From Mustelus asterias (lineage: Eukaryota): a DNA stretch of 64,000 bases. Positions 33,731 through 61,562 of this stretch are shown here, piece by piece. The notes below the pieces were generated by a model. That model was not told the origin of the DNA. It did not search any database and worked only from the letters and a program-made list of their open reading frames with translations. The stretch covers positions 109,306,001 through 109,370,000 of the forward strand of contig NC_135809.1 in assembly GCF_964213995.1 (NCBI RefSeq), written 5' to 3'. Position 1 is the stretch's first letter. Every line of letters begins with the position of its first letter. A program made the position numbers and the translations under genes.

Positions 33731-34071
33731 TCACAATGAGCTGCTTCCTGTTCCTGAAATACCAACTCCACTTAATTTCAGTTGGAAGTCTCGGCAAATT
33801 GGGTCCATCTCAGTGATCACTTCAATTTGGAGTTTACAATTGCCATCCTCTTGCTTTGGTACATAAGTTAGTGCAGTGGTGAAACCTACACCAGTTTTAA
33901 ACGGTGTATTGGTAATGCAGATCATATCTTCAAAAGGGTAAACCTCTCTGGACCAAGTGATGTGGGTGTCTTCTATGGTGGATCCTGTAATTGTGCAGGA
34001 AACCGTCACAGGCTGGCCAGCTTTAGGACATTCAGTCCGGCAAGTGATCTGTGATACCTCCTGGAAATTAT
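33731..34071 (-). CDS. Gene 2 exon: divergent distal Ig-like domain (F-strand Cys absent)
   Basis: Acceptor attccaacag|. ITCRTECPKAGQPVTVSCTITG..ITW..FTTALTYVPKQEDGNCKLQIEV. Ends either at the TGA at 33731 or at a phase-1 donor at 33763 (|gtattt, 309-nt exon); a candidate last acceptor at 32448 gives A*. Confidence 0.7.
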
Positions 34072-34774
34072 CTGTTGGAATAAAATTAATAACAATAAAA
34101 CTCTTAAAAATGTGACATAGATATAGATTTAATTCTATTAATACAAGGAAAATTCTAGCAGTAGAGCTCTGCACTCCTACACTAGGGGCCTTTTCATTTT
34201 AGTCTCAACTGCTTCTAATATTCTACAAGAAGTGAGGCATTTGTCACCAAGTCCCTGCATGAATCACGAGCCTTGAAATGAAATAAGCAGGACAACAGCC
34301 AGAGACAGTCTAGCCATCCTCTGTCTCAATTGAGTGTATGTGGAGTTAAAGGAATAATGGAAATGGAGCCATAAAAGAAACAAAAATATTCAAGAGTGAG
34401 ATACAAGGAGGAATTCTATTCTTCACACCGGGAACTTTGACTGCGAGATTAAAGTGCTATACACAAATACTAAAAGGTTTTATAGTTTATATACTAGTAA
34501 TTTATATACCAGTTACACAGAAAAGCCAAATTGATACAATTTATTCATTTCTGGGCAAATATTTGTGCACTATCAGAATGGGCATGTTTCCAGTTCAGAG
34601 GTATTTACTAAAGTTGAAACAATTATGAAACATATCACATCCTGGCAACTGGCAAAGGGAGAGCCACAGGAGATAAGTGGAACAGTTAGCATGACATCAA
34701 CTATTAAGCACCAAGTCACTCCATATTACAAAAAGCTTGAACACCGTAGCAGATCTGGTAACTTTAAGATCTGG

Positions 34775-34953
34775 CTGGCTGTAGGGATTCGCATTCTAAT
34801 CAGTATTCTGTAACTTGATTTCTGTGTCTCTGTGCCCTGTTTGAGAGCACATTTCCACTCCATCTGACGAAGGAGCAGCGCTCTGAAAGCTAATGGTGTT
34901 TGCTACCAAATAAACCTTTTGGACATTAACCTGGTGTTGTTAAAACTCTTACT
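34775..34953 (+). mobile_element. Penelope terminal-repeat remnant
   Basis: Matches 60405-60590. Confidence 0.72.
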
Positions 34954-37132
34954 AAGATTCAAGAAGCCAGTGCATTATTGACTGTCTGCTACCAGGCTTC
35001 ATCAACTGAAGGTCCATGGGCTGCAGGCCTTTTATGTGGTCCCCAAAGCTACTGCTCAAAAGCTGGCACACAGGCCGGTCAGTTCAAATGCAGGCAAATG
35101 AAATTCAAGATTTTGCAAAGGGCTGATCTTCCAATCACAGGCCATTCTATTCCCATATCTGTTGCTGATAAGTGATCAGAAGCAAATGAGGGAGAGAAAC
35201 AGTGCAGGAGCAGCGATCACCGGTGGTGGCGAATGTGTCGAGGGCTGCCTGCCCAGGTGAAGCAAAGCTAAGTTGGGGAATGCCAAGCTCAGGCAGGGGC
35301 CGGTGTCTGAATGATGCAAAGGTTGCCCTTGTATCCACTATTGTCTGCATTCTGATATATCAGGTTTCCTGTGCATAAGGACAACAGATCGTTTGCACTT
35401 TTTGCATGATTTCTGCAAGGAAGAAGTCTTAAAATCAGAAGATGGCAACTTTTGGTAGACCCCAAAACTGAAACATAACATTTCAATGTGGAGAGAGCCA
35501 TGTGGATTGAGGCAAGCACTTTGGGTGATACAGACAGGAAATCAGAAAAGGTATTTGCCACATAGGGTTTGTCCTGTGGAACCTTTCATTAATCTTCAGT
35601 GAAACACAGCATGAGATCCTGATTACTATTTCAATTAAAATTAACATAAGCTCCATTCCTGAATTTCTATTCTAAGCTTTATTTCTCTTCTTTTTCTAAG
35701 TGTGTCTGAATGCAGTGAGGCTGTGCTCAGTGCATCCAGTCTTGTAGAGTGAGAACTAGCACTCATTCTCTCCCCTCCCAACGACCAGGACAGAGATGTG
35801 AGCGCACACACGCCCAAAGGGTTGGTACATGAATAATGTAATACTGATGAGATGCAGTAAAACAAGTTGCTGACTGAAGGATCAAGATGCATTGCCCATT
35901 CTCAAACAGTGACATTATGATTTAAGGTTTCTGTTTTTAATTATATACAGAACCAAGAACAGTCAGAAATTGATGGATAAACTGGAGTCCACTCTGTGCA
36001 CTGTAATCCACCTTCGAACGTTTGAATAGGGGACAACCCATCGGAGGCCACGAGAATAGTCAGCAGTTCGTTCAAAGTTTCTCCAGCTGCCGCCATAGAC
36101 TGTGTGTCAGACTGAGGAGGAATGTCTCATGGCTCTTTGTTTATCTCAATGTAATCATTTTTATGTGCAAAGATAGCCCCAGTTGCCAGCATAAAGAAGG
36201 AAAGAGTGCAGGCTCTCAGCAGCCAACAGCAGGTCCACCTCTCCTGCCTTGAGGAAATGGCACAAGATCCAGTCAACTCATATCATCTTGTCAATTAGAA
36301 GGCACCTAAGAAAATCACAAGCTATGTGCACACACACTATTCACATTTTGATTAAAAATATGGTTGCACTAAAGATGTGTTGAAATTGGATTTGATTAGA
36401 TAGTTTTTCTTCATCCTATTAGTTGATGCACTCAGGGAAAAGTTTGTGCAATGACCAGATGTGGCAGTTTTATCTTAATGTGGCAGAAATATGCTCTGCA
36501 GCTAGGAAATCGCTGAGCTCTATTTTATCCGCATGCCTAGGCTGCTGCTCCAATAAATCCTCAAGTGTGGGCTACTAATGGGTAGATGTCAAGAGCTTCC
36601 AGCGCAATCTCACCAGCCTGATTTCCCTTCCCTTCCAGGGAGCATACGAATTAGAAATGTATGTCCTGTCTTGTCTGAAGGCAAATGGCAGAGAATGAAT
36701 CATTAGGAACGGCAAACAAAAATACTAAATTACTGAAGAAATAAGGATTTTGCAAAGCTTTAATCATATTTGTGTTTGGTTATTTAACAGGCCAGCCACA
36801 AAAATGCTGTGGTGACAGGAACTGGTTAAAAGTTCATTACTCTGTCTCCCTAAAGTCTTTACATCTCCTACAAGGCACAAGACAGGATAATAATGGAATA
36901 ACCTCCACTTGCCTGGATAAGTGCATCTCCAACAATATTCAATGAGTTCAACACCATCCACAACAAAACAGCCTGTTTATTTGATACCCTATTCTTAAAT
37001 ATTCACTCCCTCCACTGCCAGCGCACAGTGACAGTAATGTGTACTTCCTATAGGAGGTACTGCAGCAACTACCAAGGCTCATTCAATAATAACCCCCAAA
37101 CCTGCCTGTAGAAAAGTAACAGGTGCATGGAA

Positions 37133-39227: not shown

Positions 39228-39586
39228 TTATTTTGATTTGTGGTTTCCCCACAGGGATTGTGGTAATGGTTGCTTATCCAGTCGATCGAGCACCCAGTTA
39301 ACTTCCGATGGCTTTATTAGGCTTTCATGTTCTACTTGGCACGTGTACGTCTTCTCAACATCAGCCCTGGTAGGTAGACTCTTCACACTACTTGTCAAGC
39401 AATAGAGTCCATCACTTCCCAGAGTTGGCTCACTTTCTTCAGATTCTTCTGTCATTATTTCACCACTTTTGAGCCAAGTAACTCTGATGATCTTGGGGTA
39501 GAAAGAATGTATTCGACAGTATAAAGTCATGGGTTCTCCGGCCATTATTTTTTCTGTACATGTTATTATGTCCAGTTTTGGAGGGG
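39228..39586 (-). CDS. Gene 2 exon: post-TM Ig C1 domain D3 (expected donor at 39277 reads AT; read-through stops at 39228)
   Basis: Acceptor tttcttattcag|. LYCRIHSFYPKIIRVTW..SDGLYCLTSSV..YTCQVEHESL; paralog of gene 1 D3. The domain ends ctg g|ATAAGC. Confidence 0.85.
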
Positions 39587-39822
39587 CTGAATAAGAAACA
39601 GGAAAAACAAACTTACTGTAGGTTTTAACGGAGGCAGATTAGAGATATTGGGGTCTAGATTCTACCCTATCTGTAGCCAATGGCCACATAATTTAATCCA
39701 TTGTGTTCTGAAAATTCAGAATGGGGCTAAGTGTAAAATAAAAAGTTACACAGTAAGCTCAATTAGAGAAACATCATGCTCAGGACACTTCATTCATTAA
39801 AGATGTTGAAAATATTACATAC

Positions 39823-40203
39823 CAGTAATGTCTAGAGTTATTTCTTTCTTCTCCACACTCTTAGTGCATTCGTGTTGTACTTCACAGATATACTTTGTGC
39901 CCTGGTCTTGAAGTATATCTGGCATAATAGTTAGGATACTGGTGATGCCATATGATTTGTCTTCATATTCAACCTCACTTATTTGATGGTCACACTTCCG
40001 CATCATCCCATGGTCAGGAGCAACTATTGTTCTGTTGTTCTGATCCAAACGAACAATTTCTTTCAACTCACCATTCATCCTCATTTGTTGCCATATTATC
40101 GTTAATGGTTTTGGTTTAAATCCAATGACTGAACAAGCCAAGGAGATAAGTTCATTATGATGAGTGTGCAGTGGCACCACAATGTTTGAAACTTTTGGTG
40201 GGA
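39823..40203 (-). CDS. Gene 2 exon: post-TM Ig C1 domain D2
   Basis: Acceptor ttcccaaag|, donor |gtatgt, 381 nt. LACSVIGFKPKPLTIIW..EVEYEDKSYGITSIL..YICEVQHE; clear paralog of gene 1 D2. Confidence 0.88.
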
Positions 40204-40445
40204 CTTTGGGAACAAAAAACAAAACAGAAAACAGTCAACTATTTAATCCAAAATAATTTTCAGCATTAATAAGAGTGAGAAAATACTATTTCACAGGTGA
40301 AATCCTCCATAATTTGGAGACCACAGATGGCAGATCTGCCTTATTACTATTCAGCACATGTCACTTCATATATTCAAAGACACAAGTTAACAAAATAAAT
40401 CCAGACTGGATTCAAAGAGCATTAATAATAATGTTCATGATTTAC

Positions 40446-40871
40446 CTCCTCTAACATCCAGTGTTACAGATTTCACAGCAGGTTGTGCACAGGTTTTATG
40501 GTGAACGTGGAAAATTAATTCAGCCCCATTATCTCTGAATACATCAGGATACATTTTGATATCGCCCTGTACTTGGAAGGTTCCATCTCCGTTATCAGAA
40601 AATACTGGCTGCAATGGCCGAAAGGATGGGTCTTCTTCTTTGCCATTGATAAGAAGCTGCACTTCATTGGTTGTATCTCTGGGTGCTGAACTGGTTCTGT
40701 TCTCTGGGCTATGCCATTCAAAAATCTTTTTTTCTGTTTGATCCCCCATCCTCTTCACGAATAAATGAATTGCAATGTTCCGAGGTTTAAATCGATGAAT
40801 TAGGTAACTGGTGATGACTTCTTCTGAATGGCGAATGATGGAAGGTTTGCTCATAATAATTTCTGGAGGAT
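40446..40871 (-). CDS. Gene 2 exon: post-TM Ig-like domain D1 (both canonical Cys and the C-strand Trp absent)
   Basis: Acceptor ttttattag|, donor |gtaaat, 426 nt. Collinear with gene 1 D1 (SKP, IFEW/IFQW, NGDGT/NSDGS, YPDVFRDNGA/WPDMYKDDGA, LDVRG/LKVEG). Confidence 0.82.
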
Positions 40872-43722: not shown

Positions 43723-46548
43723 TGTTATAATGCAGCCAGTGATAACATTGGATCTGTTATAATGTAACCAATGGTAACATGCTGTGAGGGTCAGCTGACC
43801 AGGTAGACATTGTAACCAATGACAGAATGATATGACCAGCTGACCCAGTATAAATAAGAAGCTGATGGGAATTGTGGGAAGCTTGTATGATCCAGGGTGT
43901 GGCCCCAAGTGTTACAGTAATGAAGTTTCTTTATTAAACCTTTTTCTTTGATTTATTTTCTGAAGTTAGTTCTTTTATTGCTTGCAACTGAAGTACCCCT
44001 ATTGCTGGATGATCAGTGGTAGCATTGATTTGAAGCATGACAAAGCTGTGGTATTTGGAAGATGTGTAGATCTACATTTTACGAGATCAGGTCACAATTG
44101 CCTTCCCTTACGTGAACTGAAAATGTCTAAGGATTCATGACAAGCATTAGCTCCATTTTCTCTACACATCTGAATGCCATGCACGCAGAGAGAAAGGCCT
44201 TCATTAAGGTTGAGGTTTCAGAATGGATAAGACGAGTCCTAAGGCATCGCATAAGACCGTTGGGGGTACAGTTTGAAAAAGGTGATATGGTCTACTATAA
44301 AAGAGAGAGGGCCTAAAAGAGTGGAATGGGCAAAGGAAAGTGATAGGGATGGATGGCAAGGTAGTCATACTACAACATGGTAACCAGACGTGCAAACCCA
44401 CTCTTTGAGAGTAGTAGAAATTGATTATGAATTTGGAGCATCTGAACAAGATGTGGAAATACAAGAAGTACCTTGTACCTCACATACACACACCTTGAGC
44501 AACTATGATGATCAGACGGCTATAGATGAGGAGGAATCTGATGATCAGCTAAGTAACAGTGAAGCAGAGGATGAAGCGGTTACTTCAAAGGTTCAGTTAC
44601 CCAAAGTGGGCACAATGGTATCATACATACCCAAAGGGTCAAGTGAGTGGAGGGATGCCACCATAATCAGAAGAGCAGGAAAGTATAAACATTGGTGCAA
44701 CATCCAAGAGCAAAGGCAAAAAGTGAAAGCTATAGTTTGGAAAGATGGAAGCCAGAAAAGTGAGATTTAAGTTCTGAGTATGAGACAGTGAGCACTTGTA
44801 AACCCAGGAAAGAGTCACGAATCTGTGACGGAAGTTGTGTTCACAGAGAATGGCGGCCTGAAGAGTAGCAGCCCTGACAGGGACAGACACTATAGTAGAG
44901 GCTGGAGCTTAATGAGGAAGGCTAGGAATCAAACAATAACAGTAATACGAGCAAAAGTCCCCATGATAGAGAAGTGTTGGTGGCTGCCAATAAAATGGAG
45001 CTCATGGAAATACGAGGCCAAAGAGAATTGGACAGTTGGAAAGAGTTTGGGGTGTACACCAAGGTACCAGATGAAGTGCAGTCTACTTTATCCATTGGTG
45101 GGTTTGGACAGAGAATTTTGCAAGATGGGACTTATAAAGCAAAAGCCAGATTAGTAGCCTGTGGGTATGAGGAACACTTGGAGAGGAAAGATTAGGATTG
45201 ATTCACCCACAGCAGGGAAAGTGACACTGACCAAAGCAGCATTTCTGCAGAGTGAAACATTTCAAGGAAAAGTTTTTTGAAGCCACCCAAAGAAGCAGGT
45301 AATACACAGGGATGGTTGTGGATACTGAATAAATGCACATATGAATTAAGTGATGCATCAAGGGTTTGGTATTTTTGTGTACGATCTGCACTGCTGAAAA
45401 CTGGCTGTGTCCAGCTAAAAGCAGATCCTGCAATGTTCTATTGGAAGTATGAAGGAAAAGTGGCTGGAATTCTTGTGATGCGTATTGATGTCTTCCAATG
45501 GGGTGGCACAGAAGAGTTTGAAAAAAGGGTAATTAATAGGCTGAAGACAGAATTTAAAGTAGGGAGTCCAGCAGCTGGTGCTTTTCGATATCTCAGTCTT
45601 GATGTCTGACAAAGCAAATCTGAGTTAATGAAGAATCATTAGGGACTGATCCTATTCCCATAACCAGAGAAAGGTCAATGGAAAAATAGGAACCGGCCAA
45701 TGAAAAAGAAACAGAATTGTTGAGGACAGTTAAATTGGCAACGCACACAGACAAGAATGGATGGAAGCTATAATGTCCTAGAGCTAAGTAATATGTTGAG
45801 GCACACTTCAGTCCGAGACATCTTGCAGGCAAATAAAGCTTTGAGGAATGTGTAATTAAATTCCCAGCCCTGGGAGAACCAGAGGACATAAAGTTAGTTG
45901 TGTTTGATGATGCTTCACCTGCCAATCCACCAGATGGACATTCGAGCAGTGCCAGATTCATAATATTCTTCGTAGGTAACGAAGGAAAATGTTGCCCCTT
46001 GGCCTGGGAAGTAAAGAAAATAAAAAGGGTCGACAAAAGTATGTTGTACGTGTTAGTGGAGGTGTTGGATATGGGGATATATTTGTCTGACACATTAAGA
46101 GTTATTTTTCATGGCAACATTGGGAAAAAAAGGTGCCAATTGAGTGTTATGTGGACAATGTTGACTGAACAAAAAATGGAACAGAAAAGTGACTGAGAAT
46201 TGATTTGGCCAGCATTAAACAAGAAGGTTTCAAATCTCAACTGGGTTGGTGCAAATCTACAGTTATCCGACTGTTTTACTAAGAGGTGCAGGTGCTGGAA
46301 AGTTGTTAGGGATACAGGAGGATGGTTACTTTAAATTAATTTGAGAAGGGGAAAAAAAGGGGAATCTGTCATAATGTGGAATAACAAAATGATGTGGTCA
46401 GCTGACCCAATATAAATAAGAAGCAGATGGGAATTGTGGGAAGATGGTGTGGCCCCAAGTGTTGAAGTTTCTTTATTAAACTTTTTTCTTTCATTTACTT
46501 TCTGAAGTTAGTTTTATTGCTTGAAGTACCCCTAATGACGAATGAACA
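43723..46548 (+). mobile_element. Decayed Ty1/Copia (GalEa-like) LTR retrotransposon, internally deleted
   Basis: Related LTRs at 43723-44015 and 46367-46548, PBS tggtagca at 44017, PPT at 46343-46364. Integrase C-terminus precedes RT (KARLVACGYEE, DASRVWY, DPAMF) and RNase H (DAS..PLAW, QLSDCFTK). Confidence 0.8.
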
Positions 46549-46549
46549 A

Positions 46550-49500
46550 TGTATAATTGTCAGTGTTAGGAATGGGTTAACAGCAAGCTTCCACTTGAGA
46601 CCTAATTTGTATGTTAATTGTTTAATAGTAGTCACTGGGATATATAAAGGGGGTTACAGGTGGCACTGGATATTGGATGTGTATGTGGAGTTGAATCAGA
46701 AAATAAAGTTAGTTTATGAAGAAGCAGGACTTGCATTTTCTTTTACTGGACTGCAAGTGAGAGGCTCAACATTGGTAGCAGAGAATGGTTGCTGGTTCCA
46801 AGTAAAGGGCTGCAAGTTCTGACATTCTCAAGGGAAAAGAAAGCCTTGACTCAGCATTCCAATTAATGAAGGAGTGACTGGGAGACAACAAAATGACTGA
46901 ACCTAGAGTAAAAGTGTCAGGATATGACTATCCACCATGCTCTGGAAAATTTTGGCAGATAGACCAAATTGCAAGTTAAATTCAGCCTTGGCATGAGAGG
47001 TACATGCAAAGAATTTGTTGCAGATGGCTGGGGGTTATAGTCCGTATCAATTAGTGGTTGGTAGAAGTCCGAAAATTCCATCTATTTTGAATGACCAGCC
47101 TCCAGCTTGGGAAGGGATTACAATTAGCTCTGCCTTTGCTGAGCATTTAAATGAACTGCATACAAGTAGAAGAGCATTTTTGGAAGCAGAAGTCTCTGAA
47201 AGAATTTGCAGAGCATCAAGGCACAATGTATGGGCATCAAACACTGTTTTTCAGCAAGGGGACATAGTATACTATAAGGGATAATTTCAATGAATGGAAA
47301 TCTATGCCCATAACAATAGATAGCAAAACAATTGTTTTGCAACATGGTAATCAAACTATTGGGGTACATTCATCAAGAATAATGGGTACAGATTACAAAT
47401 TGGCAAATTTAGAAAGAGTAGGCCAACATGATGAGGAACCAGGATCATCTGATACATAATTCTGTAACATGAGTGTAAGTTAGCTGAAACAGACAGGCTA
47501 TCTGTAGAGGAACACAATACTTCTGATGAAATAGAACCGGCCATTTTTCCTAAAGGACAACTTCCAAAAGTTGGTGCAAAAGTGACATACTTGCCTGAAG
47601 GGTTCAGTCAATGGAAGGATGCAACTGTGATTAGTAGAGCAGGGAAGACCACTGGAAAGTATAAACATTGGCTGAATGTACAGAATACAGGGGAGGATGT
47701 CAGGACCATGGATTGGGAACACTAAGTTCAAAAATGGAATGCATAGAAACGTAGTGTCAGTTCAGACGATAGTGAATGTGATCACAGGAAGAGATTGAGA
47801 ACCTCTCAACAGGAGGGAAAGATCAAGCAGTGGTAGTTCAGAACGCGATATCAAGAAGGATAGGGGACATAGCTTGACAAGGTCTTGGAGTATGGGTAAG
47901 ACTACGAACGCTACTAGGAGTAGAAGCCCGCATGCTCGTGAGGTTTTGGTGGCTTCCAATAAATTGTATGAAAATGTTTCAAACTATGTTGAACTGCATA
48001 GTTGGAGTGAATTTAGGGTATACACGGAGATACCAGATAGGGGTGTTGTGAAGTTGCATATGTAAGGTTAAAATGTGGTGTTTGACAAATGTAAATAGTG
48101 AAAAGAAATGCTAAAATCAAAAGAAGGAATCATATAGCATTGTCACCTTTTTTAAAAAAAATGGTATCTTTTGAGTGGATTTTAAATTGCAGGCTGCAGA
48201 AGCAGGTCGTTGCAACAATTGTATCAAAACCTCGCAGTCAGGGTTCCAACCTAACCAAAACAGGCTTTTGAATTGGACCAATGAATTTAAAGCAAGCACA
48301 TAGTGACACAACCAATGGAATTCAAATGTGAGAATTGACAGCCTCAAGCCACTCAGATCACAGGAATACTGGGGTAATTCCAGGCATATAAACCCAGACA
48401 AGAGGGGTAACTGTCAGAGTATGCTTGCTACCTACTGAGTCAGAAGGAGGGTAGGCAAAACTGGCATGTAAATCCTGCAGTTTCATATGTCTTCACAAAA
48501 TTATCTAAATAGAGAGAGAGAGACCAACTCAAAGTATTCTAGATGTGAGCATTACCGGAGAAAGTTTGTACTTCTAAAAGACGCTTGTTTGTATTTTAGT
48601 TGAGTGACTGAATTCTGTAACGATTTATTTCATTGTTGCTGAGGGAGTCTTGTGCCTGAACAGCATTCTATTGGGATTTTATTCCATTTGTTAATTTGTT
48701 TTAAGGTTGTCACCAGCTTTAAAAATAAAGACCTGTTAATTGTTCGTAGAGTATCAGATCCTGCTTTAATTTACCAAAACAAATAACTTCCTACTACCTC
48801 ACACATACATGTACAAGATTACGAGGCGAGGTATATCCCTTTGGGTGGTTCTAAAATTGTGCAGAGGGGAAAAAATCATCTCCACATCGTAACAGGGGAC
48901 AAAGAGCTCTATCTCACAGATGGATTTGCATGGAAAAGCTGCTTCCTGATGGAGCTTGTAAGGCAAAAGGCCAGGCTTGTAGCAAGGGGATTTGAAGAAA
49001 ATTTAGACCAGGAGATAAGGATGGCTTCATCCATGGTAGGAAAGGTTATTTTAAAGATCTTCTTGGCTCTGTTAGCTACAAAGGCCTGGGAATGCAAATC
49101 TATTGATATCAAAGTTGCCTTTTAGCAGGGGCAGCAGCTTCAGAGAGACATTTTTCTCCATCCTCCCAAAGAGGCAGCTAACACTGAAGGGATACTCTGG
49201 AAGTTAAATAGATGTGTATATTTTTTGGTACAGTCAGTTTTGTTAAAGTTAGGCTGAAAACAGACCCTGCGATGTTTTACTGGCACTATGGAGGAAAGCT
49301 TTCTGGTATCTTTATGATGCATGTCGATTTTTTTTTTTGTGGGGTGGTAGTAGTAGTGATTTTAGAAGCTATTGTGATTTCTGGGCTGAGGAAGGAATCC
49401 AAGGTTGGAAGTCAGGTTTCAAGGGCTTTCAGATATATTGGGCTGGAAATTGGACAGACTGAGTCAGGTGAGACTTTACGTTAGCAATCTTATTTGGAGA

Positions 49501-49820: not shown

Positions 49821-50655
49821 AAGCCACAATCAGACCAGACATGATGGTACTGAATGGGCTCAAGGGGCAAGAGCAGGGAGTGGAACTATCTCCTGTAGAG
49901 ACCCAGAATGGACCCGATAAGCCAGATCTTTTCTATATTGTAACCATTTTATAATTAAGTTAGTCATTTGGCAGTACTGAACTTCCATGTTGCTGAAAAA
50001 GAAATACATTTTTACTGAAGATTTTCATCTTGCACTCATCAGGATAATTTTCAAGAATACCAAATGTAAAGTGAACCACAATGAGATGAGATGCTGATTG
50101 GTTGACAAGTGGACTCTTGACCGGTAGAGACACTTCCATGGAGAATGCATCAGTTAATGGTGACTGCCAAGCACCACTGCACTGGCACAGAAATTCATAT
50201 ACCATGATATTCATTTGTGATGGGCAGAATGTCTCTTTGACTTGATGGCAGCATCCTGTTAGTGGTGTTGCTAAACTACTATGCGTAACATGAAGGAATA
50301 TTAAAGCCAAACTGTGCTGGTTAATGACAGCGCTTTACATTTGACAATATGAAAATTCATTACTGTCAGAACACTGGGGTGTGATTTGCAGCCAGATTGC
50401 CCATCAGAGCTAAATGTTAACTCCAGGTTACTTTTTCTAACTGTGCTGGACAACGTGCTGGGTACACAAACACAAGGATTATTACGGGAAAAACATGCAA
50501 TAAGCAGCCAAAGAATGACGAGAACAAGGTCCACTCAAATACATAGTCACTGAACAATAAAAAGGTTTCACCAGTATATACATTACCTTGTCGAAATTTG
50601 TGCCAACAGCAAATTGCAGTGAGAAACAGGGTACATGTGTGCAGTGTACCAATTA

Positions 50656-51231
50656 TTATTTTTTAATCCAATCAAGTCCAATTCAGAGTCTCAACAAGTG
50701 AGACATTCCTGATCCAAGCTGACAAGGCAGGGCTCTCACCTCCTGTCTTGGGCTTGATCTACATGATCCAAGCTGATTGGGGTAGGCATTGCACCTCCTC
50801 CAAGGCTCCAGGGTCCCGGGTTCGATTCCCGGCTCGGGTCACTGTCTGTGTGGAGTTTGCACATTCTCCTCGTGTCTGCGTGGGTTTCCTCCGGGTGCTC
50901 CAGTTTCCTCCCACTGTCCAAAGATGTGCGGGTTAGGTTGATTGGCCAGGTTAAAAATTGCCCCTTAGAGTCCTGAGATGCTTAGGTTAGAGGGATTAGT
51001 GGGTAAATATGTGGGGGTAGGGCCTGGGTGGGATTGTGGTCGGTGCAGACTCGATGGGCCGAATGGCCTCCTTCTGCACTGTAGGGTTTCTGTGATTCTG
51101 TGAAGGCTTGATCTCATTTGCATCTTAGCCAAAAGGCCGAGATGCCGCTTTTAAAAATTGCTTCAAACGACTTCAACCAAGTACAGCATGTCGATACTAC
51201 ACTTGATCTTAGCCAAAAGGCCAAGAAGCCA
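50656..51231 (-). mobile_element. U2 snRNA-headed SINE-like retroposon (older, divergent copy with a nested HE1 SINE)
   Basis: Head matches U2 through ..AAGTGTAGTATC, and the body is related but divergent. Left TSD gcagtgtaccaatta at 50641-50655. Confidence 0.8.
50808..51102 (+). mobile_element. HE1-like V-SINE (5'-truncated) nested in the U2-headed element
   Basis: Near-identical to 18478-18773; aaggct duplicated at 50802-50807 and 51103-51108. Confidence 0.85.
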
Positions 51232-51246
51232 GCAGTGTATCAATTA

Positions 51247-51549
51247 TTTTTTTTTAATACTTTTCCAATTCAATCAAATCAAATCCAATTCAGAGTCTCA
51301 ACAAGTTGAGACATTTCCGATCCAGGCTGACAAGACAGGGCGGGCGACTAAACCACCCTGTCCTGGGCCCGATCTACATGAGCCAAGCTGATTGGTTCCT
51401 CCTCCAAGACTTGGGCTCATTTGCATCTTAGCTTTTAAAAATTGCTTCATATGAAACATATGAAGCCTCAGCGTAACCTAATGACCTCAACCAAGTGCAG
51501 CATCCTCTCCATGCTACACTTGATCTTAGCCAAAAGGCCGAGAAGCGAT
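51247..51549 (-). mobile_element. U2 snRNA-headed SINE-like retroposon (younger copy in TM exon A)
   Basis: U2 5' end at 51549, body matches 37133-37476, poly(A) at 51247. TSD gcagtgtatcaatta at 51232-51246 and 51550-51564. Confidence 0.85.
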
Positions 51550-52149
51550 GCAGTGTATCAATTATACTTATAACAACTGCTGAATATTCCTCAGGCTCTG
51601 AAAGTTGAAAAAGAAATACAGAAGCATTTAGACTAAAATTGCCACAATAAACTGTCACTTGCACAAAACGTGGTCTGGTTTGCTCCATTTCTTTTAAATC
51701 ATAATTTAAGATACTCGAGTCTTTAAGGAATCTGAAATGACAGACCTGTGCTGTTAACAAACTCTCTAAATAGCCCAGAAATGCGGTGAACCACACTCCT
51801 TTAGCACCAATGAAAATAAGCTGCAATTACCCATGACCCAGAGAGGTATTTACTGTAATTTCATAGGTCAGTTCATTTGCATGCATATTGGAGTGGTGAA
51901 AATAAGAATAATGGAAATTAGAGTAAAGATTTTTAAAAGACAGTTTTAACCAAAGACTGCAGCAGGCAAATAAGGAACTATGGTCAACTTCGGCCTGAAC
52001 TTGCACAGTGACAGAGATCCTTTCTTCCTGATCTGAAAATATTGCCCCCAAATGTGGCATTTTCATGCAGGGTAGGGTAGGGTGGGTGGGGCGGAGGTGC
52101 AGACAGGTCCCATATTGAACATCTAGGGTTAACTGAAGCAGCTCGCATG

Positions 52150-53145
52150 ATTTTGGCGCATTGGGATGGGAGAATCGTGCGACGGACTGCCTTTTTGCAG
52201 GATTCGCGAATGCATGCGTGTCTCCCACAGCCGGAGAACAGGCGCAGTCGAGAGCGTGCTGGAAACCGGCGGGAAGAGAGGTAAGTAATTTCAATCTATT
52301 TTTAATGTATTTTAAATGTGATTATCGGGCCCGACACAGAATTCTCCGGGATAGCATCTCCCACCCCACCAGGGCTTAGAGTAGTTCCCCACGTGCGGGG
52401 AACTAGCGGGAGACCCCGGAAGAGTGAAGGGGGGGGGGCAATTGGGGGGCCCCCCCGGGGGTCGGGCAGTGGGGGGATGGTGCCCTCTGGGCATGGACAC
52501 CCTGGCTGTGCCAGCCTGTGCCCTCTGGCACTGTCCAGGAGGCATCATGGCACTGCCCAGTGGGGCTTAGGGGTGTGACCGAGAGGGCAAGTGGCAGCCC
52601 CAACAGGGCGGGGCTTGGGGGGAGGGGCCTGGGGAGGGGTGGGGCCAAGGGACGGAGCCTATAATGGACAGGACCTAGGGGCAATCAGTGGAGGTGAGGG
52701 GTCCAGCTACCACTCTGCATTGGGATTGGTCGGGACTGGAGGGAGGCCAGTGATCGGGGTGGGGGGAGTTTGTCTCCCGGGGAGTGGTCTGCTGTGGGAA
52801 TCGCTACTGCTTGGTTGGGGGTGGGGTGGGGTGCTGGAGATCGGGACGTTCCAGGAAGTGGGATGGTTGTGTGGGCCGCAGTACAAGGGTCCCGGGCTGG
52901 CCAGCGATTGAGCTGGCCAGCAAACTGGGAGACTGACAGATTGGGGCCACTGCGCATGATCAGAGGGCTGGAACTGTCTGACTCTGATGTGAATAGGCCT
53001 CGCCCCACATGCTTTTCATGAGATTCACGATTGTGGCCTCTGTGCAATGTAGAGTTTGGGAGATTAGAGTCTGAAGTTGAACTGAAAAAACAGTCGTGAT
53101 TTGCACCAGTTTTCACGCCAATTCTTCACTTTTGGGAGAATCGCG
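52150..53145. repeat. GC-rich interspersed repeat (homologous in reverse to ~22190-22510; partial copy at 61610-61920)
   Basis: Direct sequence similarity between the loci; ggagaatcgc/ggagaattgc-type termini. Confidence 0.55.
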
Positions 53146-53621
53146 ACCACAATGGTTACTGCTTAGACTCTGACCCATGCAAAGCTTTCCTGCACCCGTT
53201 AGTTCCCATTGACTTCAGGGCCCTAACTGGGCAGACAAGGGTCCCACAATAGAAATCTCCATTGACCTCGGGCAGGATCTTAGTCTTGTCCAAGAGGCCG
53301 TAAAATCCCGTCCCAGGATTCCCAGAGCTTCTTGGCGATGAACTTTGGGCAAATGCTGTCTGGATGTCAAGGATGGTCACACTCACTTTCCCTCAACTTC
53401 AATTCTGCTATTCATGCTTGGACCGAGGCTGTTGAAATATCTCCTCAGAGGCCGGTGTCTCTTCACCAGATTCCCCTTTACTTACAAACTCTATTTCATT
53501 CATAGAGTGCCTCTGGCACACAATCAGAATCCGGAGTGCCAGAACACCTGACACCCCCGGTTTTATACACACATGAGACTCTCTGATTGGGCAGACAATT
53601 CTGACCTCAATCAGGGAACTC

Positions 53622-56600
53622 TTTTTTTTGCTCCCCAACCAAATAAACAAACTCAAATTAACTTCGGGACAAATTAAAAGGGGCAGCTCTCCAAAAGGAG
53701 GGGGGAACAGCCCAAACAAAAAACAAAGTCGAAAGGATACTTAAAACATTAAATCATAATATGATTTTCAGTGTTTATAATACACCCCAGCCCCTGCGGT
53801 GCCCAGCGGGTATGGAAGACATCATCTGTGCCCATGGACACCACATGCTCCCTCTCCAGGGACACCTGGCTGTGAATATAGCCGCAGCAGAGGGGCAGAC
53901 AGTCAGGATGGACGACCCTGTCGATCGCCCCTGGAACTCTTGATGGCTCGCCTCGCATCGCCAGGCCCAGGAGCAGGTTCACAATGAGGTCGCCATCCCA
54001 ACCCGCCCCCCCCTCCGCACCAGGTGCCTGTAGATCAGGAGCGTGGGACTGAAGTGCAAACAAAACATCAGTAAAAGGTTTTTCAGGTAAGCAAAAAGGG
54101 AATGCAACCTAAGACACAAAATGTAGACATGGTCCACGGACTCCAAGACCACAGAAGGGGCAAGCTTGGGAGCCCGTGAACCGAAAGAACCTATGGTTGT
54201 ACGGGACTGCTGCATGCAGCACCCTCCACCCCAGGTCCCCAAGATAATTGGGGGAGATCCCTCCGTATTTGGACCTCAACTGTGGACCTCCGGCAGCAAC
54301 AAGGCCCGCCAAGGTGTATCTGGGTGACAGGCGAGGATGCGGTAGTGGAAGACGTGCCACAACAGTGGAGGAAACGCCTCCGTGCAGTGGAAAAGGACAC
54401 AGAGGACATTCGCATGAGGCGGCTCATGCTGAGGGGCACCTGACGGGGTGAGGGGGGGGGGGGGGGGGGAGGAGGAGGGAGGGTCTAGGCTTTGGGCCGA
54501 TGTGAAATTCCATCCGAGCAGGGGATTGCTCGGCGGGATCCCACTGCATGCCTGTGCCGCCTCGAGACCGCGTGTGCACTCGGGGCCGAGCACGACCATC
54601 CTAAGGTCTTGGATGGCTTTGGCCACGCGCCGGATGGCCATCCCCGCGCGCGCTCAGCCAGCACATGGGGGCTCATCCAACCCACTCCTCCACCATCCAG
54701 CACGTCCCCGATCCTGATCACCCCGGCGTCCATGGCCCTCCTCTCCGCCAGCCACCTGAAGTTGTACGGCTGGATTCCTGAGCAACGGCTGTCGCACGAG
54801 AGCTGCTACTCCTGACAGCGGAGAGCTGCGTTGCGAGGCGACCGTGTTTGAGACTGAGAAGGTCCTGGTAAAAGACGGGCAATGCCTGCAAGGAGGGTGG
54901 AACACACCCCAGATTTATATGCAGGAGCTGCATGTCATAATTCAGGCCGTGTAACTGGCGGAAGAAAGACATCACCAGGGCACAGCATTCTGGAGGCGAA
55001 AGGTCACTATCTGTGCGGAGGCACACCAGACCTTGACCTCCCTCCCCGAGCGGGAGACGCAGAAACCCAGTGCAGTCGGTTGTCCCAGAAGAGCTGCACG
55101 AGGGTTTTCCGGATATTGGTGACAAAGCCAGGGGGAGGGGTCAAAGTGACCAGCCTGTACAACAACATGCAGGTGAGCAGCTGGTTTATGACGAGAACTC
55201 GCACCCTGTAGGACAGCACTTGGAGCAGTCCTGTCCAACGACTCAGGCGAGCGGAGACTTTGGCCTCCTACTCCTGCCAGTTCGCCGGCCAGGATTCCTC
55301 AGCTGGACAGAGATGGAACCCCAAGTAGAGGAGGTTCGTCCTGCTCCAGGTAAAAGGCCTGAGCTCCTCCAGAAGAGGGTCCATTTCCCACGGACCGACC
55401 AGGAGTCCAGAGCACTTGGCCCAGTTAATCCCGGCGGAGGAAGCGGTGGAGTACGCCGCCTGGCATTCTCGTATCCTCCGCAGGTCAGTCGGGTCCATGA
55501 ACATGAGGAGCACGTCATCGGTGTAAGCGGACAGGACCACCCGGATGCCCAGGCTGCGCAGAGCCAAACCTGACTACCTCCTCCAAGAGGTACAGGAATA
55601 GCTCCACGCAAATCGAATACAGCTGGCCGGACAAAGGGCAGCCCTGCCGTACTCCTCTCCCAAATCGAAAGGGCGCTGTCAGGGACCCATTAACCTTAAT
55701 TAGACACTCTGCGGCAGAATACAGTAATCGGATCCCGGCGGCAAAATGTGTCCCAAACACCAATGCCTGCAGAGTTCCAAGTAGGTACTCGTGCTCCATC
55801 CTGTTGAACGCCTTCTCCTCATCGAGTGATAAGAAGGCGCTCGACAGACCAGCCCTCTGGGAATGGTGGATAAGTTCCCGGACGAGATGTAAATTGTCGT
55901 GTATCAACCTGCCCGGGACCGTGTAAGACTGGTCAGCGTGGTCATGTGGTCCAGCATGGAGCCAAGGTGTGAAGCCATTGCCGTGGCGAAGATTTTGTAG
56001 TCTGTGCTGAGGAGGGAGACCGGGCGCCAATTCTTGAGATGGCGGAGATCCCCCTTTGGCAACAAGGCAATAATGGCCTTGCGCCATGAAAGGGGCATCT
56101 CCCCAGTGGCTATGCTCTCCCCCAGCACCACCGCGTAGTCGTTCCCCAGGAAGTCCCAGAGCGCCCTGAAGAGCTCCACGGTCAGCCCGCCTTGCCCCAT
56201 TGGAGGCCGTCGAGGGCACCGGTCAGCTCAGCCAGGCATGTTGGGGCTTCAAGCATGCCGACGTCCTCCGGGCTGACCTGCAGCAGGTCCTCCCACAAAA
56301 CTCTGCAGGCATCCTCGCTGGACGGATCCGGAGAGAAGTGGGTAGTATAATAATCATGGGCAATAGCCCGGATGCCCTCCGGATCCGAGACGGGGGAACC
56401 GTCGTCGTCCCGCAGCGCGCTCTTCTCCCTGTACTCCAGCCGCAGGGCCGGGTCCGCGTCGGGCTGACTGAGGCGTGCCTCCAGGTCAAACCTCTTTCTC
56501 TAACTCCTCGAGCCTGGCTTTCCGCTTCTTTGTCGACCCCCTCGTGTACTCCTGACAGAAGGTACGGATGTGAGTCTTGCCCACATCCCACAATAGCCTC

Positions 56601-59600
56601 CAGGAGGGATAGCCTCCCCGCTTCCTTCTCCAGCTGGCCCAGAATCGACGAAACAAATCCAGGAAGCGCTCCGTCCTCCAGCAGCGTGTTGTTGAAGTGC
56701 CAGTACGCGGACGCCCCCGGACGCGAGACGGAACAAATTCCGCCCTCACCAGGTGGTGGTCCATGCACGGCACCTGCCGCATGGAGGCTGACGGGACGCT
56801 GGACACGTGCGCACTCAATGTAAAGGCGGTCGAGTCTGGACGCTCCGCCTCCAGGCTTCACGCAAGTGAAAATTCTGGAGCCAGGATGGAGATGTCTCCA
56901 GACGTCCACCAAGTCGTGGATCCCGAGCAGGTCCCGCAACTTTACCACCGCCAGGGTGCGCAGCCAGGAGCCGGTGCAGACCCGTGCCTCGAGGGTACAG
57001 TTGAAATACCCCCCCACCCCCGAGGATGATGCATTCGCCCCCATTGATGGTGTCGAGACAAGCGGATGCTTTCTTGTAGAAAGTCATTTGCTGCGGTCGG
57101 GGCATTGACGTTCAGCAAGTGAGTAACCACGCCCCCCTCGCGGACCATCAAGTGCAGCAAGCAGCCTGGCACAGGGTCCTTAACCCCCAAGATCTTTGGC
57201 TGAAAATGCGGGGCCAACAAGATAGCCACCCCACTAGAAGCGAGCGTGAAGTGGCTCATGTAGACCCCCCCCCCCCCCCCCCTCGCCACTCCAGGAGCCA
57301 TCGGGCGTCATCTCCTGGAATGCAGGAAACGCACCGCATACTTCCCGTCCCGGAGGACCAAGAAGTTCTGGAACCTGTGGAGTGGCTCACTGCTGCTGTT
57401 GATGTTGAGGCTGACCGTCATGTCAGTAGCTTAGTGCCACCGTCACCACTTTAAGTGTGGGGGAGCGCTGGCGCAAGACGCGCCAGTCCACTTCCCCCAT
57501 GAGCCCAGAGGACCTTCTGTTCCCAACGCCACTTTTCCAGCCAGGCCTGACGCGGCCTGTGTGGACCGGACGAGCAGCGCCAGGTCCGACCAATGGTCAA
57601 GGGCTAGTTGGACGCTGTTGGGGTGACCAGAGTGGCCTTTGATAAAGGCCCCAAGTTCCCCAGAGGGGATGAGGGCGACTCAGTTGGGGGCACGAGGCAG
57701 TCCCCCGCCTCGCTCCAGGCAGACTCCGAAATTGTCCCCATGCCCACTACCGAGCAACTTGCCTCTTCACGGCAGTCAGACTAAGAGTCCCCCGCCACAG
57801 GGCGTATGGCGGGCGGCATAGAGCCGCCAACTAGTCTGGACTCTCCCACCCCCAGGATCGGCGGAGCTGGGGTCCTGTCCCGCTCCTCCCTAGTTTCTGG
57901 GTCAGAGGGTGGCAACGGCTCAGTCCCCCGCCCTGCCCCAGACAGCTGGGCACCCCACAGGTCCAGAGAATCCTCCAGTCTGAGTTGGGGGTGCGGAGAA
58001 CCGCGGCAGCACATGTTTATTTTTTCCCTTTTTCTTTCCCTTGCCCCCGTACTGGGCGCGGGGCAGGGGATGGTATGAATTGGGAGAGGAGCGTGGTGCC
58101 ACAACCTCCAAGCAAGGGGAGGGGGTGTGGGGAGTCCCACAGGTGTCAAGTCCCCCCCTCCCCTAAGGTGTAGCGCCTCTTCTTGAGGGCCAGCCCCTGG
58201 CAGGCGATGCCCCTCGCGCTCGGTCCCTCTCCTTCCTGCCCTGCCCCTTCGGCTTTCCCTTCCCCGGGAGGTGTCTCTGTTGCCAGGTCGAGGTCACGTG
58301 TCCCCCCCCCCCCATTGGCCCGGTAGATGGTGTTGATGGGGGGGCCGGAGGTAGATTTTCTCCCTGAGCCGGCTGCTGGGGTGACTGGGGTAGTGGGGGT
58401 CGGGGTAGGTACTCGTGCTCCACCCTGTCGAACGCCGTCTCCTGAAGGCGCTCGACAGACCAGCCCTCTGGGAATGATGGATTAGGTCCTGGACGAGATG
58501 TAAGTTGTCGTGCATCGACCTGCCCGGGACCGTGTAGGACTCTTAAATTGTCCCCGTGTCCACCACCGAGCAGCCTACCTCCTGAGGGCAGTCATCCTGC
58601 GACTCCGAGTCTCCTGCCGCAGGGGGTACAGCAGGTGACATGGAGCCGCCAACTAGTCCAAACTGCCCACCCCCAGGATCGGCGGAGGAGGGGTTCCTCC
58701 CGGGCACCTGCCTGGTTTCTGGGCCCGAGGGTGGCACCAGCTCAGTCCCCCGCTCTGCCTCAGATGCCTAGGCATCCCACAGGTCTAGAGAATCCTCCGG
58801 TCCGATGTGGGGGGCGCCCAGCATCAAAGGTCTGGACAGAGAGGGGGGCCCTCCTCTCCACTACCACCCAAGGATCCAAATGACGGGGTGTTTCCGCAGT
58901 CCTCCAGCAGGCTGAAAAGGAACTCCTCCGGGGTGCTAAATTGCACCGGGTGGAACAGATCGACGGGGGCCCCGCGCTCACCCGGCCCCGGGGGAGTTCC
59001 ACTTGGAGGACCGCGGCAGCACGTTTTTCTTCTGTCTTTTTCTTCGCGCTGTTGCCTCCGATTTGGGGGCAAGGCACGAAGATGGGTGGGGGCAGGGCAG
59101 GGGATGGCACAAATTGGGAGGGGGTGTGGGCGCCACCACCTCCGCAGCTAGGGGAGGGGGTGTGGGGAGCCCCACAGGACCCAGATTCCCCCACCCCTGA
59201 GGTGTAGCGCCTCTTCTTGAGAGGCAACCCCCTGGCAGGGAATGCCCCTCGCACTCTGCCCCTCTCCTTCCTGTCCCACCCCTTGGGCTTCTCTTTTTCC
59301 ACCCCGGGAGGTGTTATGTCTGCCGGCTCGGGGTCACGTAGCCCCCCACGCCCGGACCTGGGCACCCGCAACACCGGGCCCTGCACATGGCGCTGAGGTG
59401 CCCACGGGCCAGGTAGATGGTGTTGGAGGGGGGGTCGGAGGTGGACTTTTCCTCCAAGCTGGAGGTGTCTGTTGCGATCCTCATCCGATGTGTATGAGGA
59501 GGATCGCAACAGACAGCTCCAGACGCTGAAAGATGCCCTCATAAGAACAGTATATGGGGCTCGACTCATCGATCGACAGTTCCGACGCGCCACAGTGAAA

Positions 59601-61147
59601 AACCGCACCGACCTCCTCAGAAGACAAACACGGGACACAGTGGACAGAGTACCCTTCGTCGTCCAGTACTTCCCCAGAGCGGAGAAGCTACGACATCTTC
59701 TCCGGAGCCTTCAACATGTCATTTGATGAAGACGAACATCTCGCCAAGGCCATCCCCACACCCCCACTTCTTGCCTTCAAACAACCGCACAACCTCAAAC
59801 AGACCATTGTCCGCAGCAAACTACCCAGCCTTCAGGAGAACAGTGACCACAACACCACACAACCCTGCCACAGCAACCACTGCAAGACGTGTCGGATCAT
59901 CGACATGGATGCCATCATCTCACGTGAGAACACCATCCACCAGGTACACGGTACATACTCTTGCAACTCGGCCAACGTTGTCTACCTGATACACTGCAGG
60001 AAAGGATGTCCCGAGGCATGGTACATTGGGGAGACCATGCAGACGCTATGACAACGGATGAATGAACACCGTTTGACAATCACCAGGCAAGACTGTTCTC
60101 TTCCTGTTGGGGAGCACTTCAGCGGTCACGGGCATTTGGCCTCTGATATTCGGGTAAGCATTCTCCAAGGCGGCCTTCACGACACACAACAACGCAGGGT
60201 TGCTGAGCAGAAACTGATAGCAAAGTTCCGCACACATGAGGATGGCCTCAACCGGGATATTGGGTTCATGTCACACTATCTGTAACCCCCACAACTTGCC
60301 TGGACTTGCAAAATCTCACTGGCTGTCCTGTCTGGAGACAATACACCTCTTTAACCTGTGCTAATGCTCTCTCCACTCGCATTGTCTGTACCTTTAAGAT
60401 TTGATTAGCTGTAAAGACTCGCATTCCAATCATTATTCAGTAAATTGAGTTTGTCTGTATATGCCCTGTTTGCTGTTTATGAGCAGGTCTCCCACTTGCC
60501 TGCCGAAGGAGCAGCTCTCCGAAAGCTGGTGGCATTTGCTACCAATTTAACCTGTTGGACTTTAACCTGGTGTTGTTAGACTCCTTCCTGTTGTTGGGGG
60601 ACAGAGGAAAGGTCGGGGTCCAGGTGCTCTCTTCCCCTGGTGTCAGAGAGGGGGACGGAGGAGCAGGAGGGAGGACAAGGGACAGGGCATTGAGGTGGGC
60701 TGGTGCCCTGTCCGGGGGGGTGGGGGGACTTTAATCTTTAATCTGGGCCCAACAAAAAGTCCAGGTATATTTTCACCTCCCACTCCGGTAGATGGAAATT
60801 ATTTCTTTTTCACCCCCCCTCCGCCTCCTTTTTCAGTCACAGACCTTGGTGGGTTGGGGCAGCAGCCCCTTTTTTCCCTTCCTCTCCTCGATGGTATCTG
60901 TCCACCCTCCTGCAGCTGGGAGCTGGACCCTGAGCTTCCAGGCCCAAGACCTCCTGTCTTCTGGGCCTTTCTCTTTCCCTCTCCTCTCCTCCTCTCTCTC
61001 CCAAGGAGCGAGCACTCCCCAGTGGCTGAAGGTTGGGGGCGATAGTTTTTCCTCCAAAACTGCCAGGGAGGCAGAAGTCCCTTCACAAAAATCCCTTTCT
61101 TTCCAAACTCTAACTGCAGGACACAGAGTGCTCGCAGTTAGCAGTCT
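53622..61147 (-). mobile_element. Tx1-clade (L1-group) non-LTR retrotransposon, decayed and rearranged
   Basis: EN motifs (SSGVAILL, RLDRLY, WHFNNTLLED), RT motifs (WRPVSLLSTDYKI, GVRQGCPLSG, AYTDDV), C-terminal CPFCG..ESVDH..C, and poly(A) at 53622-53629. The GC-rich 5' part (57450-61147) has internal duplications, and the 5' boundary is uncertain. Confidence 0.82.
59472..60590 (+). mobile_element. Penelope-like element 3' part (GIY-YIG endonuclease plus terminal repeat) nested in Tx1
   Basis: NVVYLIHC..C..WYIGET, RMNEH, VGEHF, EQKLI, GLNRD motifs, followed by the ..aacctgttggactttaacctggtgttg terminus. Confidence 0.88.
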
Positions 61148-61220
61148 AATGACAAGAACAAGGTTCACACAAATACATAGTCACTGCACAATAAAAAGGT
61201 TTCACCAGTATATACATTAC

Positions 61221-61562
61221 CTCCTTTACGTCTGCGCCAAATGAAAGATGCGAGTGCGTATGTCAGCAGTATAACCATTAAAATTCCTGCTGCNNNNNNN
61301 NNNNNNNNNNNNNNNNNNNNNNNNNNNNNNNNNNNNNNNNNNNNNNNNNNNNNNNNNNNNNNNNNNNNNNNNNNNNNNNNNNNNNNNNNNNNNNNNNNNN
61401 NNNNNNNNNNNNNNNNNNNNNNNNNNNNNNNNNNNNNNNNNNNNNNNNNNNNNNNNNNNNNNNNNNNNNNNNNNNNNNNNNNNNNNNNNNNNNNNNNNNN
61501 NNNNNNNNNNNNNNNNNNNNNNNNNNNNNNNNNNNNNNNNNNNNNNNNNNNNNNNCCAGATT
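61221..61562 (-). CDS. Gene 2 transmembrane exon, copy B (spans the assembly gap)
   Basis: Minus-strand acceptor ctttttcaactttcag| at 61562, donor |gtaatg at 61221. Visible part reads AAGILMVILLTYALASFIWRRRKG; N gap at 61294-61555. Confidence 0.7.
61294..61555. other. Assembly gap (262 N)
   Basis: Run of N. Confidence 1.

Follow-up and report, generated by a model that had tools for sequence, protein, structure and literature searches.

A young inverted B7H6 duplicate in the shark Mustelus asterias, probably encoding a ligand with a shortened tail of immunoglobulin domains

From which neighbor was a shark gene with a row of immunoglobulin (Ig) domains behind its transmembrane (TM) segment copied, and does it still encode a protein? 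The question is raised by a 64,000-nucleotide stretch of the Mustelus asterias genome (NC_135809.1:109306001-109370000, hereafter the window; positions outside it are given in continued window numbering), in which two genes of this layout, with tail domains numbered from D1, lie on opposite strands. The initial annotation held the minus-strand gene (gene 2) to be an old inverted duplicate of the plus-strand gene (gene 1), kept under selection. Our analysis changes both the partner and the date: gene 2 is, judged by its sequence, a young inverted duplicate of a third gene, gene 0. We propose, with a probability of about 0.6, that this young B7H6 duplicate still encodes a type I ligand of the NKp30 family, whose Ig tail, likely cytosolic, now has three domains where it once had seven.

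Gene 0 is a full-length gene (V, C1, TM and D1-D7), represented by the houndshark model XP_078076918.1, with its exons 21-63 kb left of the window start. In inverted orientation, gene 2 is collinear with it over approximately 58 kb, introns included, at 71-97% DNA identity. Across six exons the gene 2 protein is 88% identical to that of gene 0, against 36% (range 34-42%) for gene 1, and the ectodomains of genes 0 and 2 are 86% identical. In a tree of 57 constant-type domains, from which gene B (described below) and the V domains were excluded and in which the gene 1 and gene 3 rows are long-branched, gene 0 and not gene 1 is the sister of gene 2 in all five domains compared (C1, D1, D2, D3 and D7; support 99-100). 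Tail domains D1-D3 and the ectodomain C1 cluster by position in the same tree, and the white-shark orthologue falls outside the gene 0/gene 2 pair, which implies that the duplication is young within this lineage. The split between gene 1 and gene 2, at which synonymous divergence (dS) is saturated, is attributable to an older tandem duplication. A direct copying of gene 2 from gene 1 is ruled out by the collinearity with gene 0 and by the tree. The fourth tail exon of gene 2, first described as a divergent fourth domain, also finds its place here: with 24% identity to gene 1 D4 and 95% to gene 0 D7, it is D7 and not a diverged D4.

Gene 2 begins to the right of the window, where the initial annotation had predicted ectodomain exons on the minus strand and had staked its case on their presence upstream of 61562. 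They exist there: two copies of the leader exon (84388-84499 and 90332-90443), V (76080-76418) and C1 (66002-66331), all minus strand and beyond the window. V and C1 have canonical splice ends in phase 1, and the splice sites of leader, V and C1 are intact. The 5′ end, leader exon included, is tandemly duplicated (82423-90581, beyond the window). The intron toward these exons (61563..64000) continues past the right window end. On its near side lies TM copy a (61221-61562, minus strand), bounded by AG/GT in phase 1-1 and mostly N in the sequence read; its readable end is in frame and encodes a hydrophobic helix followed by basic residues. Copy a comes from a tandem duplication of the TM region. 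It measures 342 nucleotides (nt) against 114 nt for the gene 0 TM exon, from which its readable end has strongly diverged, and its splice flanks are 95-100% identical to those of copy b, discussed below.

The tail exons follow, again on the minus strand: D1 (40446..40871, phase 1-1), D2 (39823..40203, phase 1-1), D3 (39278..39586) and the terminal D7 (33731..34071), which ends in a stop and is sister to gene 0 D7 in the tree (100/97). D2 and D3 are C1-set domains with both canonical cysteines; D3 matches the Pfam family at 3e-18 and has 5 differences from gene 0. D1 has no Pfam match, where Pfam gives C1-set for most other exons of genes 1 and 2. It reads as a C1-type Ig fold with a long loop and without either canonical cysteine, and its model is an Ig sandwich (predicted local distance difference test score, pLDDT, of 81) whose nearest folds are major histocompatibility complex (MHC) class II beta and beta2-microglobulin.

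Gene 2 has also been damaged. Within 43 bases at 36787..36830, the match to gene 0 moves from position -24006 to -38967, the mark of a 15-kb deletion that took D4, D5 and D6 together with a 48-nt linker exon bearing an acidic tyrosine motif. Downstream of D3 (39228..39277, minus strand), the splice donor reads AT where gene 0 has GT, so the frame runs on for 15 codons to a stop; we found no poly(A) signal in the 1.6 kb after this stop and no in-phase donor before it. TM exon copy b (50587-51597, minus strand), the counterpart of the gene 0 TM exon, is split by an insertion, frameshifted and dead. The insertion, of about 890 bases, is a repeat headed by U2 small nuclear RNA (snRNA) that contains a nested short interspersed element (SINE) and shows a target duplication of 16 nt.

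Human B7H6 is a surface protein that alerts natural killer (NK) cells, and several lines of evidence place gene 2 in its family. A profile of 16 shark and ray homologues finds human B7-H6 as its best PDB match (E 2e-45), ahead of SIRP-alpha (8e-27) and B7-H3 (5e-24). The V domain of gene 2 alone scores 37-38 bits against human B7-H6 in one domain and 21-23 bits per domain against B7-H3, although by summed score the four-domain B7-H3 ranks first. A search with D2 returned 13 shark proteins, among them a nurse-shark record of 1092 residues deposited as B7H6 (QTT61906.1). Leader, V, C and TM occupy separate phase-1 exons of a predicted type I protein, with TM copy a partly readable. An Ig heavy chain of the IgD/IgW type was considered and rejected, as the TM precedes the array and V is one exon; the matches to IgD are weak and carry their TM last.

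Synteny agrees on one side. An RPS13 exon lies at 108.606 Mb (minus strand), 390 kb left of the first V exon, and NUCB exons lie at 108.851-108.858 Mb (plus strand), 140 kb left of it, NUCB1 and NUCB2 not being distinguished; the human order beside NCR3LG1 is RPS13-NUCB2. In PMC7071772, an expression quantitative trait locus table groups PIK3C2A, NUCB2, NCR3LG1 and KCNJ11 on human chromosome 11. KCNJ11 and ABCC8 were not found beside the cluster, the nearest IRK match listed lying at 98.3 Mb and the nearest ABC-membrane match at 27.3 Mb of the same contig. The suggested link to NCR3LG1 is thus upheld by the PDB profile match, the nurse-shark record and the RPS13-NUCB side, whereas the KCNJ11-ABCC8 side of the synteny fails among the matches listed.

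Residues that contact NKp30 in the human protein are partly kept: 4/11 in gene 2 (Gly83, Thr127, Pro128 and Lys130), 5/11 in gene 0, 7/11 in the nurse shark and 0/11 in the Xenopus V domain. In human B7-H6, Thr127, Pro128 and Lys130 of the FG loop form hydrogen bonds and a salt bridge to NKp30, as described in PMC3135353. Of the 11 V-domain differences between genes 0 and 2, two fall on these contacts (p 0.29) and six within two residues of them (p 0.012), a distance of our own choosing and a mere hint.

Is gene 2 retained by selection, as had been supposed? Over 702 codons, the comparison with its true sister, gene 0, gives a nonsynonymous divergence (dN) of 0.058, a dS of 0.069 and a dN/dS of 0.84 (95% interval 0.55-1.38), which fails to reject neutrality, and the ratio differs from 1 in no single exon. 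A neutral ratio was one of the outcomes that the initial annotation had named as refuting it, and for the true pair this outcome is what was obtained. The gene 1-gene 2 ratio of 0.24 was discarded as evidence on gene 2, because dS is saturated and the value reflects the long shared branch. Polarization with four outgroups places 18-24 residue changes on the gene 0 branch and 26-30 on the gene 2 branch. The reading frames speak against decay. The six exons compared with gene 0 hold 124 substitutions, one 3-nt gap and zero frameshifts. Ten flanking intron blocks served as the baseline; they comprise 4240 aligned bases with 391 substitutions and 46-56 indels that would break a frame. At these rates a single branch should have gained 7-9 frameshifts (P 0.0001-0.0007 for the zero seen), a deficit that conversion could account for in part. 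For C1 and D1 alone, which have diverged by 10% like the introns, approximately 4.6 would be expected (P ~0.01).

Sequencing reads provide a second line of evidence. Four of the five listed runs, none of them recorded as RNA, were aligned, to D1-D3 only, and the RNA nature of runs X1 and X4 is our deduction, made because their cover is confined to exons and D2 joins D3 at the exact borders. In X4, one contig (record 21) carries a gene-2-type D1, which differs from gene 2 at 0 positions and from gene 0 at 30; a second differs at 1 and 6, respectively. Both leave the DNA sequence at exon borders, one with 115 extra letters upstream. The D1 exon of gene 2 thus appears to be spliced in one RNA-like run, and the absence of transcripts that would have spoken against the gene was not observed, with the run type deduced as above. 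The joined D2-D3 contig in X4 follows the gene 0 pattern (17 and 5 differences) and extends a further 1419 bases, about the size of D4-D7. Little weight attaches to record 16, an X4 contig that lies downstream of D3 and has a depth of only 5. In the DNA-like run X2, both D2 types occur at equal depth (22.9 of 46.5), which indicates that gene 2 is a real second locus.

On which side of the membrane, then, does the tail lie? Antibodies, T-cell receptors and MHC are the textbook setting of C1-set domains, where they act as extracellular modules, and to our knowledge such domains otherwise occur in extracellular and luminal proteins. Around the single TM of the shark-type proteins, however, the net charge changes from -1.1 before to +2.4 after in 17/17 cartilaginous-fish proteins, with no second TM (four isoforms, partial sequences or near-duplicates were omitted from this set). 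A leader, a single TM and the same change from negative to positive charge are also found in the teleost set described next. Glycosylation sequons per 100 residues fall from 1.42 in the ectodomain to 0.20 in the tail in 38 teleost proteins (38 of 49, the eleven omitted being without TM or tail) and from 1.19 to 0.53 in 31 distant proteins. The canonical cysteine pair is present in the ectodomain C1 in 5/5 cases and in 10/23 tail domains, the rows being related; D1 and D7 of gene 2 are without it. All seven tail domains of the gene 0 model are beta sandwiches, with block pLDDT mostly 70-90, and a whole-protein fold search returned multi-Ig proteins alone. The acidic linker contains a tyrosine in 9/16 shark and ray proteins and a YxxI/L motif in 8/16. 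Taken together, we consider it very probable from these sequence features that the C1-type array lies in the cytosol.

The layout is also widespread. A D1 search of 1.84 billion representative sequences gave 57 matches. The order V-C-TM-D is present in 31 of them, and a second TM in one of these 31; the ten looked up include electric ray, horn shark, coelacanth, reedfish, newt, lungfish and frogs. Rays, bichir, coelacanth, lungfish, newt, frogs and teleosts all have proteins with Ig domains behind the TM. The view of the initial annotation that gene 1 is no chance juxtaposition is upheld. In teleosts the layout characterizes a V-C-TM-3xIg family of about 615 residues, putative orthologues of B7H6, and some members (610-618 residues) lie whole on assembled contigs of 2.0-2.6 kb. 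Its presence from sharks to bony fish and amphibians suggests that the layout predates the shark-bony fish split. Tail length and content vary. Bamboo and epaulette shark models (P0009, P0010, P0012) have shortened tails, having lost D4-D6 or D5-D6, and in Xenopus P0024 and P0027 a D1 homologue right after the TM (59-60 bits) is followed by tachylectin domains. The B7H6 tail seems to be a domain-swapping site. A near-identical basking shark pair, P0003 (1108 residues) and P0014 (645 residues, ending after D3), parallels genes 0 and 2. The frog-type proteins P0024, P0027 and P0104 run V-C1-TM-D1, tachylectin propellers and a beta-rich region, which may resemble aerolysin-type domains.

We propose the following model for gene 2. 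Leader, V and C1 would be spliced to TM copy a and then to D1, with V-C1 facing outward and, by analogy with human B7-H6, potentially binding NKp30 through the Thr-Pro-x-Lys of the FG loop. In the full-length gene the cytosolic C1-type array, together with a phosphotyrosine linker, may serve as a scaffold for docking, a role that would parallel the one proposed for the Gag-derived tail of the human protein with its immunoreceptor tyrosine-based inhibitory (ITIM), SH2 and SH3 motifs (PMC2715080). For the cluster as a whole, we consider NKp30 ligands with tails of this scaffolding kind the most likely products. The gene 2 protein would end either with D3 plus 15 residues or, through D3 skipping, as D1-D2-D7. 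With the tyrosine exon gone and the tail short, it could present a variant ligand face with a reduced signaling tail.

Several observations weigh against this model. The divergence from gene 0 is indistinguishable from neutral, and V, D2, D3 and D7 differ between genes 0 and 2 by only 2-5%, such that conversion may have kept these frames clean. Three lesions have gathered in one gene, and its protein is absent from the 13 matches of the D2 search, where that of gene 0 is present. X4 yielded D2 and D3 of the gene-0 type only and none of the gene-2 type, a weak point because contigs drop variants; moreover, the sequence before D1 in record 21 could belong to C1 or to a TM exon, and TM copy a is mostly unreadable. 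Gene 2 has Ala at human Gly62. As to the cytosolic placement, D2 and D3 keep both cysteines in 16/16 shark and ray proteins, and cartilaginous fish show a weak sequon contrast (0.96 vs 0.61, where tail composition predicts 0.60). As a rival account, gene 2 could be a pseudogene copy of gene 0 that is still transcribed and is decaying while conversion across the inverted repeat keeps its exons looking open, a reading that we regard as unlikely but that deserves serious attention. A dN/dS near 1 would suit it, as would the dead TM copy, the dead D3 donor and the 15-kb deletion, the patchy identity (90-98% around D1-D3 and D7 vs approximately 90% elsewhere), the slight excess of residue changes on the gene 2 branch (27:24, 26:23, 30:18 and 29:18 with the four outgroups) and the 7-8 changes in D2 on that branch against 1-2 on the other. 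Conversely, C1 and D1 have diverged to the level of introns yet stay unbroken, whereas the dead TM copy did gain frameshifts; the gene 0 branch is also heavily changed in C1 and D1, which means that the high ratio is not one-sided; and intact splice sites at leader, V and C1 are not what decay would predict.

The remaining alternatives concern where the product goes and whether the locus is real. A secreted product, with C1 spliced directly to D1 so that a long Ig chain is released as a soluble decoy, would keep its frame, since all exons are in phase 1-1. The death of the orthologous TM exon would suit it, as would record 21, in which the piece joined to D1 on its upstream side ends in AG and matches C1 or the TM exon equally, and soluble human B7-H6 is known (PMC6514059). 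We nevertheless judge this quite improbable, given that C1 and D1 are separated by another TM exon, whose splice sites are intact, and given the lack of the cysteine pair in D1 and D7, which would be unusual in a secreted C1 domain. More improbable again is an array that is extracellular or luminal, or a separate gene fused to B7H6 by annotation. The usual setting of C1-set domains and the cysteine pairs of D2 and D3 would fit such a view, and the reads cover D1-D3 but not the TM-D1 junction; yet the V-C1-TM-D order of the 31/57 distant representatives from sharks to frogs, the whole teleost proteins on single assembled contigs, the absence of a leader before D1 and of a second TM, and the positive-inside charge all oppose it. 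That gene 2 is an assembly artefact, an inverted second haplotype of gene 0, is largely refuted and receives almost no weight from us. Parts of the two are 97-98% identical, and the D3 donor change is unseen in X2, where the single contig is of gene 0 type; however, the introns have diverged by about 10% with many indels and private insertions, and an independent DNA run has the two types at the same depth, with both also present in an RNA-like run. On balance, a young B7H6 duplicate that still encodes a short-tailed ligand remains our preferred interpretation.

Gene 1, on the plus strand, is the old paralog of gene 2 and consists of V (1280-1642), C1 (4629-4949), TM (10653-10769), D1 (12348-12779), D2 (16018-16395), D3 (17798-18109) and D4 (21489-21812). 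Its leader and last exon were not found, and no further Ig exon was found between D4 and the end of gene 2; a splice donor is present after D4, with no further Ig exon in window positions 21812-31800. The domain-for-domain match to gene 2 reported initially is real: a tblastn search within the window takes gene 1 D1 to minus-strand 40441-40869 (E 9e-17), D2 to 39818-40207 (4e-29) and D3 to 39270-39617 (1e-20), the positional counterpart being the best match each time at 30-39% identity, a resemblance far beyond chance by these scores. Six-frame translation likewise confirmed the three quoted motif pairs in open frames where they had been placed. The introns of the two genes share dispersed repeats and, beyond these, one 85-nt V-exon piece, in keeping with the reported lack of obvious intron similarity.

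The wider neighborhood, covered for 400 kb left and 200 kb right of the window, holds a cluster of approximately 440 kb (109.00-109.44 Mb) in which an exon search found seven V exons, and the claim of a clustered multigene immune family therefore holds. In a genome-wide search, at least 6/6 V matches and at least 9/9 D1 matches lie inside it. Besides genes 0, 1 and 2, the cluster contains gene B in the 109.00 Mb region (108999957-109058962; V, C1, TM and three D1 copies), an orphan V exon without the first cysteine, gene A (109145627-109174974; V, C1 and two D1 copies), for which two crude scans found no TM exon, and gene 3 (V, C1, TM and six domains). The tails of genes A and B consist solely of tandem near-identical D1 exons, the two copies in gene A differing from each other by 9 nonsynonymous and 0 synonymous changes, and the representative protein P0083 carries seven D1 copies. 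We read this as a cluster of NK-ligand genes in birth-and-death turnover, in which the length of the tail is what varies. In humans NCR3LG1 is a single gene, against these seven V exons, and Flajnik et al. are said to have described many Xenopus B7H6 genes in one cluster in 2012.

The repeats of gene 2 merit a brief account. The U2-headed repeat in TM copy b (50661-51549, minus strand) has a U2 head (Rfam U2, 53 and 44 bits), a unique body and an A-rich end, and the TM-exon sequence that it targeted is itself similar to the 5′ end of U2. Its body has 857 candidate genome copies, 40 of which were scored at 92-100% identity, and it looks like a young U2-headed SINE family; U2-headed elements are known from crocodilians (SINEU). 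The nested SINE (50805-51100) is very young and abundant, with 2829 candidates and 40 scored at 95-100%. Between the TM copies and D1, the introns at 52300-60300 and 44300-49500 contain, by eye, degenerate non-LTR (long terminal repeat) frames (reverse transcriptase and endonuclease-like) and LTR-like fragments.

What would this mean for B7H6? Already known are B7H6 itself, its clusters and a full-length shark protein with the array, deposited as B7H6. No description of the post-TM Ig array was found in the literature searched; Flajnik 2012, Ohta and Flajnik 2015 and Kinlein 2021 lay outside its coverage and may contain one. Tentatively, and at somewhat less than even odds, we suggest that the ancestral jawed-vertebrate B7H6 had a cytosolic C1-set array with a phosphotyrosine linker, an exon-modular, fast-turning cassette (one to seven or more domains, tandem D1 runs, frog lectin domains) that was replaced in humans by retroviral Gag, with gene 2 as trimming in progress. 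If true, such an array would put the MHC/antibody constant domain to an intracellular use not yet described, its range from sharks to amphibians and teleosts would make B7H6 an intracellular scaffold as well, and the question of what the Gag-derived tail replaced in humans would have an answer open to testing. Gene 2 alone would be a further B7H6 paralog in an expected cluster; it is the shared layout that would matter, and genes 0 and 2 offer a natural comparison of long and short tails.

Comparison with known systems places these proposals in context. Nurse shark B7H6 (QTT61906.1, UniRef A0A8A9WSM4) likewise has V-C1-TM and seven Ig domains, is 59% identical in D2 and joins genes 0 and 2 domain by domain; gene 2 differs from it in being lineage-young, in lacking D4-D6 and the tyrosine linker, and in its dead D3 donor and two TM copies. 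Xenopus B7H6 proteins have a post-TM D1 homologue like the shark, with tachylectin domains instead of D2-D7. Human B7-H6/NCR3LG1 (PDB 3PV6, 4ZSO, 6YJP) is alike in its type I form, phase-1 V and C exons, the Thr-Pro-x-Lys kept in its FG loop and its NUCB neighbor. Its tail, however, is Gag-homologous with ITIM, SH2 and SH3 motifs (PMC2715080), where the shark tail is built of Ig domains that Pfam, profile and fold all assign to the C1 type. SIRP, tapasin, MHC and immunoglobulin contain C1-type domains like those of the shark tail by the same three measures, but carry them outside the membrane or in the lumen of the endoplasmic reticulum, with the disulfide kept as a rule; the shark array instead follows the sole TM, and 13/23 of its domains are without the cysteine pair.

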